Source of the DNA: Patescibacteria group bacterium
GTDB lineage: Bacteria; Patescibacteriota; Patescibacteriia; GWA2-46-9
Length of the DNA: 64,000 bases
Reading direction: 5' to 3'
Assembly (NCBI GenBank): GCA_041675205.1
Contig: JBAYUF010000001.1
Span: 148,863 to 212,862 of the forward strand
Positions 38,929-61,348 of the stretch are shown in pieces. The notes beneath the pieces are model-generated. The model worked only from the letters and a program-made list of their open reading frames with translations. It was not told the DNA's origin and made no database searches. Made by a program: the position numbers and the translations under genes. Numbering within the stretch: position 1 is the stretch's first letter; every line of letters starts with the position of its first letter.

Positions 38929-39903
38929 ATGTCGATGGAACATGCCCTTCAAAATTTTCCTGAGCAGTTCAATTTTCAGCCAGTTGTTGTTGGTAGTGTG
39001 AATATGTCACAAATAAAACGCATTGTGGTTTGCGGCATGGGTGGTTCACACTTGGCGGCTGATGTACTTTCTGCTTGCTATCCCGAACGGCACATCATCA
39101 TACATAGCGACTACGGTTTGCCGTTTATCCGTGAAGATGAGGAAGCCGACACATTGATAATCGCCTCATCATATTCTGGAAATACCGAGGAAGTACTCGA
39201 TGCGTACGAATTAGCGAAGCGTCGTGGATTGCTACTAGCGGCTGTAGCAGTTGGTGGGGAACTTATCCGTCGCGCCACTGCGGACGGTGTCGCCCATGTG
39301 GTGTTACCAGACGTTGGCATACAGCCGCGGATTGGGCTTGGTTATAATTTACGAGGGTTGTTGGTGTTGCTTGGGGATGAAGCAGGGTTGGCCGAGACGG
39401 CCACACTTGCGACTATACTCGATGTAGCAGCGGCTCAGAAGCAGGGTGAAGCATTGGCGAAAATTATTCGCGGCAAAGTGCCGCTTATTTACGCCTCGAA
39501 TACCAACCGGGCGATCGCAAATATTTGGAAAATTAAATTTAATGAAAACGCAAAGATTCCGGCGTTCATGAATGTGTTGCCAGAGCTTAACCACAATGAA
39601 ATGACTGGCTTTGACGTGGCTCCTGCTGCTGTAAGTCTCAAAGAGCCATTTCATGTAGTTTTCCTCAGTGACAGTACAGATCATCCGAAAATAAAGCGGC
39701 GCATGGATGTTTGCAAAGCCCTTTATGATGAGCGTGGTGTAGGGACTAGTGTCGTGCCGATTGTGGGTGAGACTTTTTGGCAACGTACATTTTCAAACTT
39801 GCTCATTGCTGATTGGACGTCATGGCACTATGGTACGACGATTGGTGCCGAAACTGAGCAGGTCCCTATGGTAGAAACATTTAAGCGTCTTATTGAGTCG
39901 TAA
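38929..39903 (+). CDS. bifunctional phosphoglucose/phosphomannose isomerase (SIS domain)
   Basis: VVCGMGGSHLAADVL and SYSGNTEE SIS motifs. Overall PGI/PMI-family architecture. Confidence 0.75.
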   Translation: MSMEHALQNFPEQFNFQPVVVGSVNMSQIKRIVVCGMGGSHLAADVLSACYPERHIIIHSDYGLPFIREDEEADTLIIASSYSGNTEEVLDAYELAKRRGLLLAAVAVGGELIRRATADGVAHVVLPDVGIQPRIGLGYNLRGLLVLLGDEAGLAETATLATILDVAAAQKQGEALAKIIRGKVPLIYASNTNRAIANIWKIKFNENAKIPAFMNVLPELNHNEMTGFDVAPAAVSLKEPFHVVFLSDSTDHPKIKRRMDVCKALYDERGVGTSVVPIVGETFWQRTFSNLLIADWTSWHYGTTIGAETEQVPMVETFKRLIES

Positions 39904-47722: not shown

Positions 47723-47989
47723 ATGGAATCATCCAATACTAAAAAACTTGTTCGTCGGCTGAAGATAATTGAAGGTCAAATTCGTGGTCTGCAAACTATG
47801 GTTGCAGATGGCACGTATTGTATTGATGTAATTACGCAAACGTCTGCTGTGAAGCAGGCGTTGTCGAACGTAGAAGATATTTTGCTCGAAAATCATCTTG
47901 GATCTTGTGCCATAAAGCAGGTGCAGTCTGGGCAAGTGGAGAAAGCGAAGCGTGAAATACTTCGAGTTTATAAATTAAAACGACGCTAA
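47723..47989 (+). CDS. csoR: CsoR/RcnR family metal-sensing transcriptional repressor
   Basis: DUF156 fold. Metal ligands in YCIDV ... H ... C (GSCAI) arrangement. First gene of the cop operon. Confidence 0.7.
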
Positions 47990-51776: not shown

Positions 51777-51848
51777 TCCGGGGTAGCTCAGCGGTAGAGC
51801 AGTGCGCTGTTAACGCATTGGTCGTGGGTTCGAGTCCCACCCCCGGAG
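51777..51848 (+). tRNA. tRNA-Asn (anticodon GTT), CCA not encoded
   Basis: Acceptor TCCGGGG/CCCCGGA. D-arm GCTC-AGCGGTA-GAGC. Anticodon stem GTGCG/CGCAT with loop CTGTTAA. T-arm GTGGG-TTCGAGT-CCCAC. Confidence 0.9.
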
Positions 51849-52202
51849 CTTTGGAGAGAATACGACAAAGAGAAGGGGGAGCGAATGAACTGCTTCATTC
51901 GCGTTGGGGCGAGAAAGCCGGAACGATGTCTGAGGAGTACTGCTGACGACGAAGACCGTGAGGCGGGGTCGCGACCAAGGAGGCGGAAGCCGACGAGAGT
52001 TGTGACCGAGTCCCACCCCCGGAGCTTTGGAGAGAATACGACAAAGAGAAGGGGGAGCGAATGAACTGCTTCATTCGCGTTGGGGCGAGAAGCGCGCAGC
52101 GATGTTCGACGAGGATTGCCGCCGAGGCGAACCGCGAGCGGCGGCCTGCGAACGCTGAGGTGGAAACCGAAGCGATTTGTAGGAGAGTCCCACCCCCGGA
52201 GC
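51831..52202 (+). repeat. three direct copies of the tRNA-Asn 3' end (19-20 nt) bounding two ~175-nt tandem units; the first 86 nt of each unit are identical
   Basis: CGAGTCCCACCCCCGGAGCT at 51831, 52007 and 52183. The 66 nt following (TTGGAGAGAATACGACAAAGAGAAGGGGGAGCGAATGAACTGCTTCATTCGCGTTGGGGCGAGAA) is perfectly repeated at 51851 and 52027. Confidence 0.75.
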
Positions 52203-52251
52203 TATCAAAGGACGTCTGTTACTAGCAGGTGTTTTTTGTTACCCTCTACGC

Positions 52252-57184: not shown

Positions 57185-58300
57185 ATGCACCTCAGCTCTG
57201 CCAAGATTGTTAGTATAGTGTTCGTGCTCGCTTTATTATTGAGTGGCGTGTATTCGTTTGGATCAAGATATTTTTCAATGTCAATTGAGCAACCAATAGC
57301 AGTACAAACAGAACAAGAGGTCAGTGATAAAGAAGAAAAATTAGGAACTGTTCAAACAATTTATTTTCCGGTAGACGGCTATCTCAGTCGGCGAACATTT
57401 AAATCATTTGGTGAGTATATTGAAGATCGATTTACCGGTTATCATGTAGCTGACGACATAGAATTTACAGATGTTACGGATGATGTGCCGGTCGTGTCAA
57501 TCGCCGAAGGAACAGTTCGCCGTGCGGAGCACATATCTGGATATGGTGGCTTAGTTATCATTCGGCACACGCTTCCGACTGGCGAAGTGAATGCGCTCTA
57601 TGGTCATTTGGATTTAGCGAACACAAAACTGCAGGTTGGAGACGTTGTTGCTGCAGGGTCGCGCGTTGGCGTTCTTGGACAAGGGGGAAGTACTGCCACG
57701 GATGGCGAGCGTAAGCATTTGCATTTCGGGCTTTATAGTGGCGAAGATGTGCGGTTACAGGGGTATGAAAAGATTGCCTCACGTGTTGCTAGCTGGATAA
57801 ACCCAACAGATTTTTTCACAGACAACGGTGTGGTGCTTGAAGAACAGGGTAGAATGTTTGACCAAAAGAGTGAGCGTGACGGGGAGGAGTTTCCTATTCA
57901 ATTTTGGTTACCTCGCGGTGCTGAGGTTGAGTATGTGCCGCAAATAAAAGCGTTGAATGTTTTTTCTCTCAGTGGCAGTGGTACGGCTCGTGAACGGTCA
58001 CTTTTCTTTATTCGCTTTTTTGATGCTGATTCTTTCCAGACACTGAGTACGGTTATGGTGCATTCTAAAGAAAATACAGTTGTCGGCGCGGAGCAATATA
58101 GCGCCCGGCGTTATGACATTGAGAAAAAAGACAGTGCGACAGATTTCCCTTTTCAGCCACTATGGCGGAACGAGCGGCATATTGTCACAGACGTTACGAC
58201 AGGCTCGGGTTTTCGTCGGTATTATGTTGTCGCAAAGAATCCTACGATTTCAGAGGATACGTATAAAGATTTTTTAAAAAGTTTGGTGATTTTGAAGTAA
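57185..58300 (+). CDS. M23 family metallopeptidase (LytM domain)
   Basis: HVADDIEF (HxxxD) and HLHFGLY (HxH) zinc motifs. N-terminal TM/signal. Confidence 0.8.
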   Translation: MHLSSAKIVSIVFVLALLLSGVYSFGSRYFSMSIEQPIAVQTEQEVSDKEEKLGTVQTIYFPVDGYLSRRTFKSFGEYIEDRFTGYHVADDIEFTDVTDDVPVVSIAEGTVRRAEHISGYGGLVIIRHTLPTGEVNALYGHLDLANTKLQVGDVVAAGSRVGVLGQGGSTATDGERKHLHFGLYSGEDVRLQGYEKIASRVASWINPTDFFTDNGVVLEEQGRMFDQKSERDGEEFPIQFWLPRGAEVEYVPQIKALNVFSLSGSGTARERSLFFIRFFDADSFQTLSTVMVHSKENTVVGAEQYSARRYDIEKKDSATDFPFQPLWRNERHIVTDVTTGSGFRRYYVVAKNPTISEDTYKDFLKSLVILK

Positions 58301-58345
58301 CGAATATTCAACAAGATTTACTTTGCTTTTTTGGGTCGATTTCAG

Positions 58346-58421
58346 TAAGGTGCATTCGTTCTTGAATCATTCATCGGTCACTTGGTCATTGAAATGTACT
58401 CGCCACATGGCGGGGAATAAC
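58346..58421 (+). promoter_or_regulatory. conserved promoter/leader element, copy 1 (upstream of the purC/purE fusion gene)
   Basis: TTGCTT-N17-TAAGGT then GCATTCGTTC...GGTCATTGAAATGTACTCGCCACATGGCGGGGAATAACG. It is paralogous to 60017-60091. Confidence 0.45.
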
Positions 58422-58439
58422 GTAGGTAGGAGTATAACG

Positions 58440-59912
58440 ATGGCTGTACTGTCACCAGCGCGGGCCGCATGGCCTGTGCTTAAAGGATTGAAACTCGTCA
58501 GTCGTGGGAAGACCCGCGACGTCTACGATATAGGAAGAGGATTTCTGCTGATTGTTGTCACAGATGCAATCAGCATTTTCGACATCATCCTGAATGCGAT
58601 GGTGCCCGGCAAGGGGACCATCCTGAACGTGATGACCGTATTCTGGATGCGGCTGCTCGAAGCTGAGCTCGAGACGAAGACGCATCTCGTTGCGGTCGGT
58701 TCACAGGTTGATTCGCTTTTGCCTGAACCGTTGCGTGGCGACGTTGAGCTCCAGTCTCGGGCCGTCGTGGTACGTCGTGTCGACATGGACCCAATCGAGT
58801 ACATCGCCCGTGGCAATTTAACGGGCACTGGCCTCGAAGCGTATCAAACAACGCGTGCGGTGTGTGGCCAGCGGTTACCCGCCGGGCTACAGGATGGTGA
58901 CGAGTTGCCATTCCCACTCTTCACACCGACCACCAAGGCTGAGGCGGGACATGATGAGCATATCAACGCCGTTACTGTCACTGGCGGGCATCCTATGGCT
59001 GCGCTTTCGACACTCGGCATCTACGGCTTTGCGAGGGCATACGCCGCATCGCGAGGCATCGTCATCGCCGACACCAAGTTCGAGTTCGGGCGCGATGACG
59101 ATGGTAGGGTGGTACTTGCTGACGAGGTCTTGACGCCGGACTCGAGTCGCTACTGGGCGTATTCGGCGTGGCAGGTGAGTCAGCGGCAGATGGTGCGAAC
59201 GTCGCCAGCCAGTTTCGACAAGCAATTGGTTCGCAACTGGGGAAGCAGGGTAGGGGTGAAAGGGCCGCTAACGGCAGAACACATTGCGCGAGTGCATGGC
59301 ATTAAGGTGCCGCAGAGGATTCTGAAGGCAACCGCGCAGGCCTATCGCTACATCTTCTGGCGCCTCACCGAACAGCGCGTGGAGGGGTACCTCAATGACT
59401 ACATGAAGGTACGGGTACCATCGGTGAAGCAACGTGTCGCCGTTCTGCTGGGTAGCAGGTCCGATCTCGAGAGCGTGCGCGCGGCGCTGAGCCAGGCGGA
59501 TGCGGTAAACGACTTCGCGAGGCTTGACGTTCATGTGGTGAGTTGTCACCGGAATCACGATGCACTTCGGCAGTTCGTCGCTTCAAACTGTGATGGTGCT
59601 GACACTATCATCGCAGCTGGTGGTAAGGCGTTCGCTTTGCCGGGGGTGGTTGAGACACTGGTGCACGATGCCGGTAGGGAGCAACGGGTGATTGGTGTGG
59701 CACTTGGCGAACTCGGCAGCGAAGGGTTGCGAGCGGCGGAACTTTCGATTACGGAGTTGCCGGGGCAAACGGTCGTGATCGACGAAATCGCCGGTAGAGC
59801 CTATAGCGGTTTCAAGGGTATGCAGGCCGCATTACATCGTGTTGCCAACGGTGAACTGCCACCGCCGCCTGATCGGAAGGAGGCTCCGGCAGAGTTCAAC
59901 ATTTCGTTCTAG
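58440..59912 (+). CDS. purC: bifunctional SAICAR synthetase (PurC) / PurE-like AIR carboxylase-mutase fusion
   Basis: N-terminal GKTRDVYDI...LLIVVTDAISIFD (PurC). C-terminal VAVLLGSRSDLESV...IIAAGGKAFALPG (PurE GSxSD fold). Confidence 0.75.
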   Translation: MAVLSPARAAWPVLKGLKLVSRGKTRDVYDIGRGFLLIVVTDAISIFDIILNAMVPGKGTILNVMTVFWMRLLEAELETKTHLVAVGSQVDSLLPEPLRGDVELQSRAVVVRRVDMDPIEYIARGNLTGTGLEAYQTTRAVCGQRLPAGLQDGDELPFPLFTPTTKAEAGHDEHINAVTVTGGHPMAALSTLGIYGFARAYAASRGIVIADTKFEFGRDDDGRVVLADEVLTPDSSRYWAYSAWQVSQRQMVRTSPASFDKQLVRNWGSRVGVKGPLTAEHIARVHGIKVPQRILKATAQAYRYIFWRLTEQRVEGYLNDYMKVRVPSVKQRVAVLLGSRSDLESVRAALSQADAVNDFARLDVHVVSCHRNHDALRQFVASNCDGADTIIAAGGKAFALPGVVETLVHDAGREQRVIGVALGELGSEGLRAAELSITELPGQTVVIDEIAGRAYSGFKGMQAALHRVANGELPPPPDRKEAPAEFNISF

Positions 59913-60016
59913 TCGGCGGAGGACCGACAGGACAAGTGAAAGTGGGGTGTGCGGAAGGCTCAACTGAGCAACCGTACACCCCCTTTTCGTTCCTTGCTTT
60001 TGGCTTACTTTTCTAA

Positions 60017-60091
60017 TAAGGTGCATTCGTTCCAGGAAAATTGTTTCGTGGTCATTAAAAAAATGTACCCGCCGCTTTGGTGGGGAATAGC
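60017..60091 (+). promoter_or_regulatory. conserved promoter/leader element, copy 2 (upstream of the PurM-family gene)
   Basis: TTGCTT-N17-TAAGGT then GCATTCGTTC...GGTCATTAAAAAAATGTACCCGCCGCTTTGGTGGGGAATAGC. Compensatory stems CGCC/GGCG versus CCGCC/GGUGG. Confidence 0.45.
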
Positions 60092-60118
60092 TTCAAGTTT
60101 GTTGGCAAGGAGAAAGTC

Positions 60119-61249
60119 ATGACCGATAAGTCACATGGCGAATACGCCAAAGCGGGCGTTGATTACGGGAATATTCGGAACTGGAAAGCGATGATCAAGC
60201 AGATGGGGCGTCAAACCCTGACGTTCCCGAATGCTCGGCATGTGTTCGTCGAGTCAGACGCGCACGCCGCCTCGTATGAGTATCGAGGCGGCAGACCGCA
60301 CCGGTGGGGCAAGACGCTGGAAGGTCTTGGTAATAAGGAGTGGATTGCCGAGCTGATGTACTCGCTGACTGGCGATACAAAGTACTTCAGCGGAATTGGT
60401 GTTGACGCCGTGCTCATGAGTGCCAACGATGTCGTTGCTCATGGCTATATGCCGGTCGTCGGATTGGATGAAATCGCTGCTGGTGACGATGCCTGGTTTG
60501 CGGATTCATTTCGCGCAGAGGCCTTGATTGGCGGGTTCTTTGATGCCTGCCAAATGCTTGGAATGGCGTTGGCTGCTGGAGAATCCCCAGCGTACAAGTA
60601 TCTCATCAAAGCAGAACCGCCGGTGGTAAGCGCGCCGACCTTCAGTGCATGTGTTACTGGGATCGTCATCGATCCGGAACGGCGTTACATCACTGGGAAG
60701 AAGCTTGCCGTGGGTGACGTCATCATCGGCGCGACTTCATCCGGCGGTCACGCAAACGGTGCTTCGCTTCTCATCAAACGAGGTATGGCCTTACCGGAAG
60801 GGTTCCTTACCAAACTGCCAAACGGTGAAACGCTCGGTGCAGAGGCGCTCATTCCGACCCGGTCGTATGTCGCCTTGGTGGAGGCGCTGCTCGACGCCGA
60901 AATCGACGTGCACAAGTTTCTGCCGGTAACAGGTGGTGGGGTCGCCAAGGCGGCTGCAGATTCTCGGCTGTTCAATTATCGAATCCACACCTGGTGTGAT
61001 GATGTGCCACCGTTGTTCCGTTTCATGGCTGAGCTCGGTGTCAGTCGTGAAGATCTGCTGACGACCTTCAACTGGGGAATCGGATGGCTGACATTCGTTC
61101 CCCGTTCTGAGGCCGTTCGAACGATCCAGGTTGGCACCAAGGCCGGCTACGAGATGTTCGTGATCGGACGAGTCGAAGAGGGCGACCGCAGGGTCATTTT
61201 TCAGCCGGATGGTGAAGAACGAATCGATTTGCGGCCGCCGGGTGAGTAG
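60119..61249 (+). CDS. purM: AIR synthase (PurM) family protein
   Basis: AAGGAG RBS. N-terminal YAKAGVDYGN. GIGVDAVLMSANDVV. GESPAYKY... PurM-type N- and C-domains. Confidence 0.65.
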   Translation: MTDKSHGEYAKAGVDYGNIRNWKAMIKQMGRQTLTFPNARHVFVESDAHAASYEYRGGRPHRWGKTLEGLGNKEWIAELMYSLTGDTKYFSGIGVDAVLMSANDVVAHGYMPVVGLDEIAAGDDAWFADSFRAEALIGGFFDACQMLGMALAAGESPAYKYLIKAEPPVVSAPTFSACVTGIVIDPERRYITGKKLAVGDVIIGATSSGGHANGASLLIKRGMALPEGFLTKLPNGETLGAEALIPTRSYVALVEALLDAEIDVHKFLPVTGGGVAKAAADSRLFNYRIHTWCDDVPPLFRFMAELGVSREDLLTTFNWGIGWLTFVPRSEAVRTIQVGTKAGYEMFVIGRVEEGDRRVIFQPDGEERIDLRPPGE

Positions 61250-61348
61250 ATGGTAGTTTCCAACTAGCCGATGAACTGACGGGAGGCAGTCATTGACACA
61301 GTGCAGGTGCGGGGGTCGACGTGAAAACGTTTACCCCCGCACAGCCTT

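Follow-up and report, generated by a model that had tools for sequence, protein, structure and literature searches.

Two purine-biosynthesis genes with paralogous upstream regions

Two genes of one pathway, purine biosynthesis, lie on the + strand between 58440 and 61249 of the window, by which we mean the whole 64-kb stretch of DNA that was analysed. The first (58440..59912) encodes a PurC-PurE fusion of 490 aa, with matches to Pfam SAICAR_synt (2e-57) and AIRC (6e-11) and to NCBIfam PRK13961 (274.5 bits, above cutoff). The second (60119..61249) encodes a divergent PurM or AIR-synthase-related protein of 376 aa, which matched Pfam AIRS and AIRS_C and, below cutoff, TIGR00878 (8.6e-40); the best solved relatives of this product are PurM enzymes. 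Between the genes, a long hairpin followed by CCUUUUCGUU was found on the + strand at 59938..59988. Its folding energy is -32.4 kcal/mol (z=-6.0), and none of 200 shuffled sequences folded as well. Because this strong hairpin is terminator-like, purC-purE and purM are considered separate transcription units, and since it ends just before the upstream region of purM, that region needs a promoter of its own.

Each gene is preceded on the + strand by a copy of the same promoter-leader cassette: copy A (58323-58439) belongs to the purC-purE fusion, and copy B (59994-60118) to the divergent purM. The position upstream of two purine genes had been given in a preliminary description of this DNA and was confirmed by the domain matches. 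Against the 64-kb window, the two copies matched each other with 69.6% identity over 102 columns (E=1.2e-7). Identical columns numbered 68 of 103 in the alignment of A and B, and the matches were clumped (runs test p=0.0014). Copies A and B are paralogous copies of one cassette, which arose by duplication, and the conservation between them starts exactly at the -35 element. The conserved blocks are TTGCTTTT, TAAGGTGCATTCGTTC, GGTCATT, AAATGTAC, a GC-rich hairpin of 6 bp and GGGGAATA; the 17-nt promoter spacer, the middle of the leader, the hairpin loop and the linker to the ribosome-binding site have drifted. Since the duplication is old enough for functionless positions to have drifted, we conclude that the invariant blocks are held by selection.

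Promoter architecture and conserved leader blocks

In both copies a -35-like TTGCTT lies within TTGCTTTT (58323..58330 in A and 59994..60001 in B, identical), and a -10-like TAAGGT follows 17 nt downstream of it (58346..58351 and 60017..60022). The combination TTGCTT-N17-TAAGGT was present at 58323 and 59994 and nowhere else in the window, in agreement with the preliminary description. The two hexamers at this distance, the divergent spacer and the location upstream of a gene together describe a sigma70-type promoter in each copy. Only 7 of the 17 spacer positions were identical between the copies, compared with 16 of 16 in the 16-mer TAAGGTGCATTCGTTC, which begins at 58346 in A and at 60017 in B. 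A simple promoter scan missed both sites, since TAAGGT fits TATAAT at only 3 of 6 positions. Among 39 relatives' loci, TAAGGT was enriched upstream of purC-purE (5 loci, with 1 expected); TTGACA was likewise enriched and was correctly arranged with TAAGGT, which lay 17-18 nt past a perfect TTGACA in loci L014, L021 and L034. In the relatives, TAAGGT is a genuine -10 variant.

Directly after the -10 hexamer, the copies share the invariant GCATTCGTTC (58352..58361 in A and 60023..60032 in B), which lies within the 16-nt identical block and extends from the discriminator across the predicted start into the first transcribed bases. If transcription begins, as is usual, about 7 nt past the -10 element, the predicted starts are at about G58358 and about G60029, giving leaders of 82 nt in A and 90 nt in B. 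The six nucleotides between the -10 element and the predicted start are identical in A and B although they would not be transcribed, suggesting a constraint at the DNA level beyond the two hexamers. With these starts, GGTGCATTC would be present in DNA only, and most of the best-conserved block (-10 element, discriminator and predicted start) would lie outside the transcript. The preliminary description had spoken of about 80 nt of 5' UTR conserved between the genes; conservation was found instead in blocks, of which the strongest, the -10 element plus GCATTC, is upstream of the predicted start. We also considered GGTNCATT as a genome-wide site, and rejected it because its 11 matches in the window were no enrichment over the 8.9 expected.

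The remaining blocks lie in the predicted transcript, and they were found where they had been reported. GGTCATT is at 58384..58390 in A and 60050..60056 in B, AAATGTAC is directly 5' of the hairpin at 58392..58399 and 60061..60068, and GGGGAATA, which consists of the 3' arm of the hairpin and an unpaired GAAUA tail, is at 58412..58419 and 60082..60089; all three are common to both copies and on the + strand. GGGGAATA occurs three times on the + strand of the window and not on the - strand, and two of these three occurrences are the leader copies. GGTCATT follows GGTGCATT at a distance of 34 bp in A, compared with 29 bp in B. The leaders end with normal ribosome-binding sites as read from the sequence, AGGAG at 58428..58432, separated by 7 nt from the ATG at 58440, and AAGGAG at 60107..60112, separated by 6 nt from that at 60119.

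The hairpin of copy A is CUCGCC-ACAU-GGCGGG (58399..58414, -10.2 kcal/mol, z=-2.56) and that of copy B is CCCGCC-GCUUU-GGUGGG (60068..60084, -11.2 kcal/mol, z=-1.37), and they scored 44.3 and 46.6 bits, respectively, with R1, a covariance model of the hairpin block. The loops differ in length by 1 nt, and the flanks, AAAUGUAC and GGAAUA, are invariant. Two stem pairs differ between the copies, U-G in A being C-G in B and G-C in A being G-U in B. Each change is one-sided, and no pair is changed on both sides; the compensatory change proposed in the preliminary description was therefore a misreading of two wobble changes. Both substitutions are C-to-U on the sense strand and keep the pairing in RNA, which mildly favours a role of the hairpin at the RNA level. 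Since the stem is nearly invariant and not covarying, sequence-specific recognition is suggested rather than structure alone.

The reverse complement of AAATGTAC resembles GGTGCATT at the -10 element, with 8 bp of complementarity (shuffle p<=0.002). GGTGCATT and AATGTAC[C/T] at about +36 are inverted copies (duplex shuffle p<=0.002), the latter partial and 41-43 bp, or about four helical turns, downstream. In RNA, the 8-bp helix GGUGCAUU/AAUGUACY would form only if transcription started upstream of the predicted site. A second hairpin, GGUCAUU/AAUGUAC, was rejected, as it was weak in both copies (-3.3 and -4.6 kcal/mol, p=0.13 and 0.03) and was not predicted by folding.

Searches for RNA families, switching structures and further copies

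The whole window was searched with Rfam 15, whose families include the purine, ZTP, PRPP, ppGpp, xanthine, preQ1, THF and guanidine riboswitches. At the gathering score only two tRNAs were found. At E<=10, three weak matches were obtained in 58200-60250, all of them outside the two leader cassettes and to families other than riboswitches, so that the Rfam scan suggested for the leaders assigned them to no known RNA family. The folds of the whole leaders were no more stable than those of shuffled sequences (z=-0.19 and -0.05), and the sole structure common to both copies was the 6-bp hairpin. A multi-helix aptamer with covariation is not what the leaders contain, as there are two representatives and one 6-bp helix.

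Folding of the leaders for terminator and antiterminator alternatives had also been suggested. A simple scan of 57900-60500 gave no terminator-like site, the leader hairpin carries no terminator tail, and no alternative fold was common to both copies, the candidate pairings being inconsistent between A and B. In copy A, the hairpin state and a state sequestering the ribosome-binding site and start codon had nearly equal energies (-26.9 vs -27.2 kcal/mol). Pairing against the ribosome-binding site was seen in A only and was at chance level in B (p=0.35). A switch at the ribosome-binding site and start codon was convincing in copy A only.

Further copies of the cassette, for which a search upstream of pur and gua genes had been suggested, were found nowhere in about 80 kb of the genome or in about 70 related loci, and the number of copies in this material remained two. 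Neither blastn nor nhmmer detected a third copy in the 64-kb window. None was present in 55 purC-purE loci from genome contigs, in 16 kb of extra flank of the same genome (L056 and L069), at relatives' purM loci, or at the closer purC-purE relatives (loci encoding P0002, P0004, P0010 and P0012). The R1 model recovered only A and B; its next match, at 39463-39491, is an antisense coding site (E=1.5) and was rejected. In the purC-purE leader of locus L005, R1 matched ATGTACCGCCGTTTTGGCG with 13.2 bits (E=6), a weak lead that is suggestive by its location only. Locus L015, the only one of the 55 with both purC-purE and purM, had no leader common to the two genes beyond the ribosome-binding region. 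A metagenome scan with TAAGGTGCATTCGTTCN{20,45}ATGTAC returned three matches, all of which were unrelated large perfect palindromes. The hairpin block had no match in viral sequences, and ten viral matches to the 16-mer, in three phage sequence families, were attributed to chance. The cassette does not have the character of a repeat or mobile element (REP, MITE), being present twice in about 80 kb, in the same orientation and directly upstream of pur genes, and no terminal inverted repeats were found. With its two copies in a single metagenome-assembled genome, the cassette is an orphan motif of limited general importance.

Explanations for the conserved blocks

The preliminary description had left the choice between a cis-regulatory RNA and a shared operator. 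A selected cis module shared by two purine units is what stood of this, and the riboswitch part found little support. The similarity also goes beyond a shared promoter, as the transcribed blocks are conserved too. We tentatively propose that selection has maintained the sigma70-type promoter plus leader because one trans-acting regulator, most likely a protein, recognises it in both copies. Each copy would drive one purine-biosynthesis transcription unit from TTGCTT-17 nt-TAAGGT, with a start about 7 nt past the -10 element, a leader with the hairpin and a normal ribosome-binding site. The invariant blocks would form the recognition surface for one sequence-specific regulator, which would control purC-purE and purM together. 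The strongest constraint would be on GGTGCATTCGTTC, which spans the -10 element, the discriminator and positions +1 to +4, and a repressor bound there would block RNA polymerase. A role of the hairpin within the RNA is probable, be it that of a generic structural or stability element of the 5' UTR or that of a second contact site. That there is such a regulator, and which target it would have, DNA or RNA, we infer. Several observations count against this reading. With two copies only, covariation and regulon-wide enrichment are out of reach; the block spacings differ between the copies, which is awkward for a rigid DNA-binding dimer; the conservation of the discriminator and start could reflect contacts of RNA polymerase rather than a separate repressor; and neither a regulator gene nor a PurR-type box was identified.

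Such polymerase contacts are central to a possible, if rather unlikely, alternative in which the cassette is not regulatory, the duplicated promoter and 5' UTR being kept because they give a suitable constitutive level of expression. The discriminator and start would tune promoter kinetics, and the hairpin would stabilise the 5' region of the mRNA. Stable leader hairpins are indeed common in these genomes: at -80 to -13 they were found in 41% of 133 genes with long upstream gaps and 56% of purC-purE genes, compared with 14% of shuffled sequences. The ordinary stability of the whole leaders, the failure to find further copies or a regulator, and the lack of a terminator or sequestering structure common to both copies are all consistent with this alternative. 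However, many sequences could meet a need for strength or stability alone, and the relatives' leaders do use quite different hairpins, so the nearly invariant stem is left unexplained, as are the invariant single-stranded GCATTCGTTC, GGTCATT, AAATGTAC and GGAATA, whose neighbours drifted. We regard it as unlikely that the hairpin and its flanks (AAAUGUAC and GGAAUA) are instead bound in the mRNA by a PyrR-like protein that alters translation or mRNA decay of both genes. In both copies the element is indeed located downstream of the predicted start and upstream of the ribosome-binding site, its flanks are invariant, its stem is kept through the two pairing-preserving C/U changes while the loop varies in length and sequence, and RNA tolerates variable distances to the other blocks. 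The untranscribed, invariant discriminator would be unexplained, though, and neither a candidate protein, nor a terminator, nor a consistent sequestering of the ribosome-binding site for it to act on was found, in a comparison of two sequences only.

A small metabolite-sensing riboswitch, in which the initiation-blocking pairing of GGUCAU with the start codon region would depend on a ligand bound around the hairpin, seems slightly less likely again. In favour of it, GGUCAU is complementary to the start codon and the next 3 nt (AUGGCU or AUGACC) of each gene (shuffle p=0.003-0.008) despite the unrelated coding sequences, RNAalifold picks this helix, the two states of copy A are nearly equal in energy, and the genes belong to purine biosynthesis. 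The probability of the pairing is 0.35 in copy A but 0.003 in copy B, where the pairing against the ribosome-binding site was at chance; the single 6-bp helix has no conserved loop, pseudoknot partner or compensatory change; and the motif matched no Rfam family and is absent from the homologous genes in the relatives' loci. The related proposal that the conserved core (GGUCAUU, AAAUGUAC, the hairpin and GGAAUA) is a very small, lineage-specific aptamer for a purine intermediate, switching translation of both genes through the release of GGUCAU or its pairing with the start codon, is improbable; if true, it would be a new riboswitch class in Patescibacteria. A leader peptide starting at the conserved ATGTAC, read as a start codon and a Tyr codon of a short regulatory ORF, is very improbable. 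ATG TAC does open an ORF in both copies, MYSPHGGE* from 58394 in A and MYPPLWWGIASSLLARRKS* from 60063 in B, the stop of the latter overlapping the purM start as ATGA, and the leader of L005 also contains ATGTAC. Yet the peptides diverge after 4 residues and neither ATG has a Shine-Dalgarno sequence before it. Because of the 1-nt indel in the loop, GGGGAATA is in different frames in the two copies, which shows that nucleotides are conserved and amino acids are not.

The Patescibacteria, most of them uncultivated, are ultrasmall bacteria whose genomes are reduced, and to our knowledge no gene regulation has been characterised in the phylum. The literature searched described no native regulatory RNA elements in Patescibacteria and contained nothing relevant on purC or purM leader motifs. 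A cis-element common to two purine promoters would give a testable entry point and a handle on the regulator or ligand, and the genetic tools now emerging for these bacteria would gain from the cassette a native promoter and leader that are regulated.

Among known systems, the proposed regulator site is like the PurR operators (the E. coli PUR box and the PurBox of Bacillus and Lactococcus) in being a short DNA element repeated at separate purine promoters for coordinated control. The E. coli operator overlaps the promoter, as does the conserved -10 block, but this block is not palindromic. The PurBox AWWWCCGAACWWT, usually an inverted pair upstream of the promoter, had 34 matches within 2 mismatches in the window (38 expected), none of them in 58323-58439 or 59994-60118. 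The E. coli PUR box, a 16-bp palindrome near ACGCAAACGTTTGCGT, matched the window once when up to 3 mismatches were allowed, at 47834 and thus outside both modules, and the approximately 80 kb examined yielded no PurR homologue. With the purine riboswitches (purine RF00167, ZTP/pfl RF01750, PRPP and ppGpp ykkC subtype 2, and xanthine NMT1), the leaders share the location 5' of purine genes and a conserved stem with unpaired flanks, but they have a single 6-bp hairpin rather than a multi-helix aptamer and no expression platform common to both copies. PyrR-type leader hairpins are similar as small stem-loops with sequence-specific nucleotides that are repeated in the leaders of one nucleotide pathway. 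PyrR sites use terminator/antiterminator alternatives, whereas no terminator is present in these leaders, and the loop sequence is conserved in the PyrR site but is the variable part of the hairpin here. Generic stabilising stem-loops of 5' UTRs, frequent in related Patescibacteria, are likewise GC-rich leader hairpins upstream of the ribosome-binding site. Unlike these, the hairpin described here begins not at the predicted 5' end but about 41 nt downstream of it, and, unlike in purely structural stem-loops, both its flanks and its stem sequence are conserved between the paralogous copies.

A duplicated cassette upstream of two purine genes

The purC-purE fusion gene (58440-59912, plus strand, ATG at 58440; SAICAR_synt 2e-57) is preceded by copy A of the cassette (58323-58439), and a divergent purM gene annotated as an AIR-synthase-related protein (60119-61249, plus strand, ATG at 60119) is preceded by copy B (59994-60118). 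Past the stop codon of purC-purE, and ahead of copy B, comes a long terminator-like hairpin (59938-59988; -32.4 kcal/mol, z=-6.0) followed by CCUUUUCGUU. The two genes are therefore transcribed as separate units, and copy B must have a promoter of its own. The same DNA of this uncultivated Patescibacteria (CPR) genome was also present, at 99.99% identity, in an ENA assembly and in a Logan assembly.

All the elements named in the preliminary description were found in place, and the TTGCTT-N17-TAAGGT pattern reported there for both copies had just two regular-expression matches in the 64 kb, at 58323 and at 59994. The two copies are 69.6% identical over 102 columns (E=1.2e-7 against the window), and neither blastn nor an nhmmer profile detected a third copy in the window. 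In a 103-column alignment the 68 identical columns are significantly clustered (p=0.0014 by runs test; the longest run is 16), and the conserved blocks are TTGCTTTT, TAAGGTGCATTCGTTC, tGGTCATT, AAATGTAC, CGCC and GG-GGGGAATA. The mid-leader has diverged, as have the hairpin loop (ACAU vs GCUUU) and the linker preceding the Shine-Dalgarno. Judged from these sequences, duplication with block-wise purifying selection on the cassettes is well supported, and the cassette is probably a functional shared cis-module. The motif, a promoter and leader in two copies before two purine genes, is real and specific to the lineage.

The fusion's PurE half has diverged strongly (AIRC 6e-11; TIGR01162 covers just positions 1-75 of 156), and the PurM-like protein scores under the NCBIfam purM cutoff. 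In relatives, the PurM-like gene adjoins a second AIRS-family gene (locus L064) or an AIRS_C fragment (locus L065); purM lies beside purC-purE in only one of 55 related loci. A strong hairpin at 61300-61347 (-31.6 kcal/mol, z=-6.3), in the gap where purM and greA converge, is probably their bidirectional terminator.

Known families and further copies

The cassette is outside all known RNA families and known PurR operator types. Rfam 15 gave no match in either leader, at the gathering score or at E<=10, and no PurR-type box was present in either cassette. Among 5.8 billion proteins searched, the closest purC-purE homologue was 53% identical; the closest purM-like protein was 63% identical. The leaders of about 45 purC-purE loci and three purM loci showed no similarity to the cassette, and the leader blocks of the window were not enriched among the relatives' leaders. 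The hairpin block's covariance model scored the two copies at 44-47 bits, and the next match was a coding-antisense site (E=1.5). Its match in the purC-purE leader of one relative, L005 (ATGTACCGCCGTTTTGGCG; 13.2 bits, E=6), is a weak lead, notable for position only. No copy beyond A and B was found in the roughly 80 kb covered of a contig of at least 246 kb, and others may lie elsewhere in the genome. The metagenome scan returned three matches, all unrelated palindromic elements: the 16-mer matches on three JGI contigs (L061, 12058-12115; L062, 1304-1361; L063, 781-838) sit in the middle of large near-perfect palindromes of >200 nt, of foldback type. Viral sequence scans returned nothing related to the cassette.

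Promoter DNA and its symmetry

Conservation between A and B starts exactly at TTGCTT, and the 17-nt spacer between the hexamers has kept its length while its sequence drifted (7 of 17 positions identical), which is the behavior of a promoter rather than of an RNA element. In 39 non-redundant regions upstream of purC-purE homologues from other Patescibacteria, TTGACA occurred in 14 (1.8 expected) and TAAGGT in 5 (1.0 expected), and three regions (L014, L021 and L034) carried a perfect TTGACA followed by TAAGGT at 17-18 nt. This enrichment and spacing indicate that TAAGGT is a genuine -10 variant in the phylum; it was absent from the output of a simple promoter scan because only three of its six positions match TATAAT. 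By the usual spacing, transcription would start at about G58358 in A and about G60029 in B. Such a start leaves GCATTC, identical in both copies, outside the transcript, so that part of the constraint would act on DNA.

The -10 and discriminator are overlapped by GGTGCATT, an inverted copy, over 8 bp, of AATGTAC[C/T] just 5' of the hairpin (shuffle p<=0.002, uncorrected for the few block pairs compared). They are separated by 41-43 bp, roughly four turns of the helix, and GGTCATT is a direct copy, one base shorter. The spacings differ between A and B, and GGTNCATT was not enriched in the window (11 matches vs 8.9 expected). This symmetry is a lead rather than a finding.

Leader folding and possible modes of action

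The two leaders share a single structure, a 6-bp hairpin (-10.2 kcal/mol, z=-2.56 in A; -11.2 kcal/mol, z=-1.37 in B). The covarying pairs claimed for it were absent: the stems (CUCGCC/GGCGGG in A, CCCGCC/GGUGGG in B) differ by U-G vs C-G and G-C vs G-U, and no pair changed on both sides. Both differences are sense-strand C/U changes that keep the pairing in RNA, for which we estimate a chance of roughly 0.03 to 0.06 without structural constraint; they lend mild, not decisive, support to pairing in RNA. The hairpin has no U-tract after it, and the leader region contains no terminator-like site. Stable hairpins at -80 to -13 occurred upstream of 56% of purC-purE genes, vs 41% of all 133 genes in those loci that have 95 nt or more of upstream gap, and 14% of shuffles, and therefore a leader hairpin as such is ordinary in these organisms.

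We tentatively favor, as possible, a sequence-specific trans-acting regulator, probably a protein, for which the cassette would be the site, because the strongest constraint falls on promoter DNA that is not transcribed, at the footprint of the polymerase, because the stem and its flanks are conserved in sequence and not merely in pairing, and because the leaders have no multi-helix fold and no expression platform in common. A non-regulatory expression cassette is the next reading, and an unlikely one. A site for an RNA-binding protein would draw on the retained stem pairing and is doubtful next to the constraint upstream of the predicted start. More doubtful still is a small riboswitch working through start-codon pairing. 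RNAalifold pairs GGUCAU with the start codon and three further nucleotides (AUGGCU in A, AUGACC in B), a complementarity above shuffles (p=0.003-0.008), but the pairing probability predicted for A is 0.35 and for B 0.003. The segment of copy A that runs from GGUCAUU to the hairpin's 5' arm is strikingly complementary to the Shine-Dalgarno/start region (-18.2 kcal/mol, p=0.003), and this alternative is nearly isoenergetic with the hairpin state, but the equivalent pairing in copy B is at chance level (p=0.35). Hence no switch architecture is common to both copies, and the folds of the whole leaders were not more stable than those of shuffled sequence (z=-0.19 and -0.05). A leader peptide is very improbable, since the frames of the copies disagree (MYSPHGGE* vs MYPPLWWGIASSLLARRKS*).

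TCCTTGC over the -35 of copy B (59991-59997) is perfectly complementary to GCAAGGA at the purM Shine-Dalgarno (60105-60111); this pairing would matter only in transcripts reading through the upstream terminator, and copy A has no equivalent.

Each Patescibacteria clade compared (L001/L002/L051, L003/L031/L071, L009/L011/L015 and L073/L074) carried, within 150 nt upstream, a conserved purC-purE leader and a hairpin particular to that clade. Examples are CAGGGCTGG-TTTT-AGTCCTG; GGGGATTCTCCCC, then AAAC (GAAC in L031) and a second hairpin; and AAGATTCC-loop-GGAATC-RGAAAGG. Leader-level control of purC-purE may thus be widespread yet sequence-diverse.

Elsewhere in the window, three recurrences of the tRNA-Asn 3' end (GAGTCCCACCCCCGGAGCT) are spaced 176-177 nt apart (51777-52203), and the tRNA is followed by two tandem repeats of about 176 nt that share 87% identity. 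These repeats resemble the scars of successive integrations at the tRNA, or else a tandem duplication for which the tRNA end was the seed.
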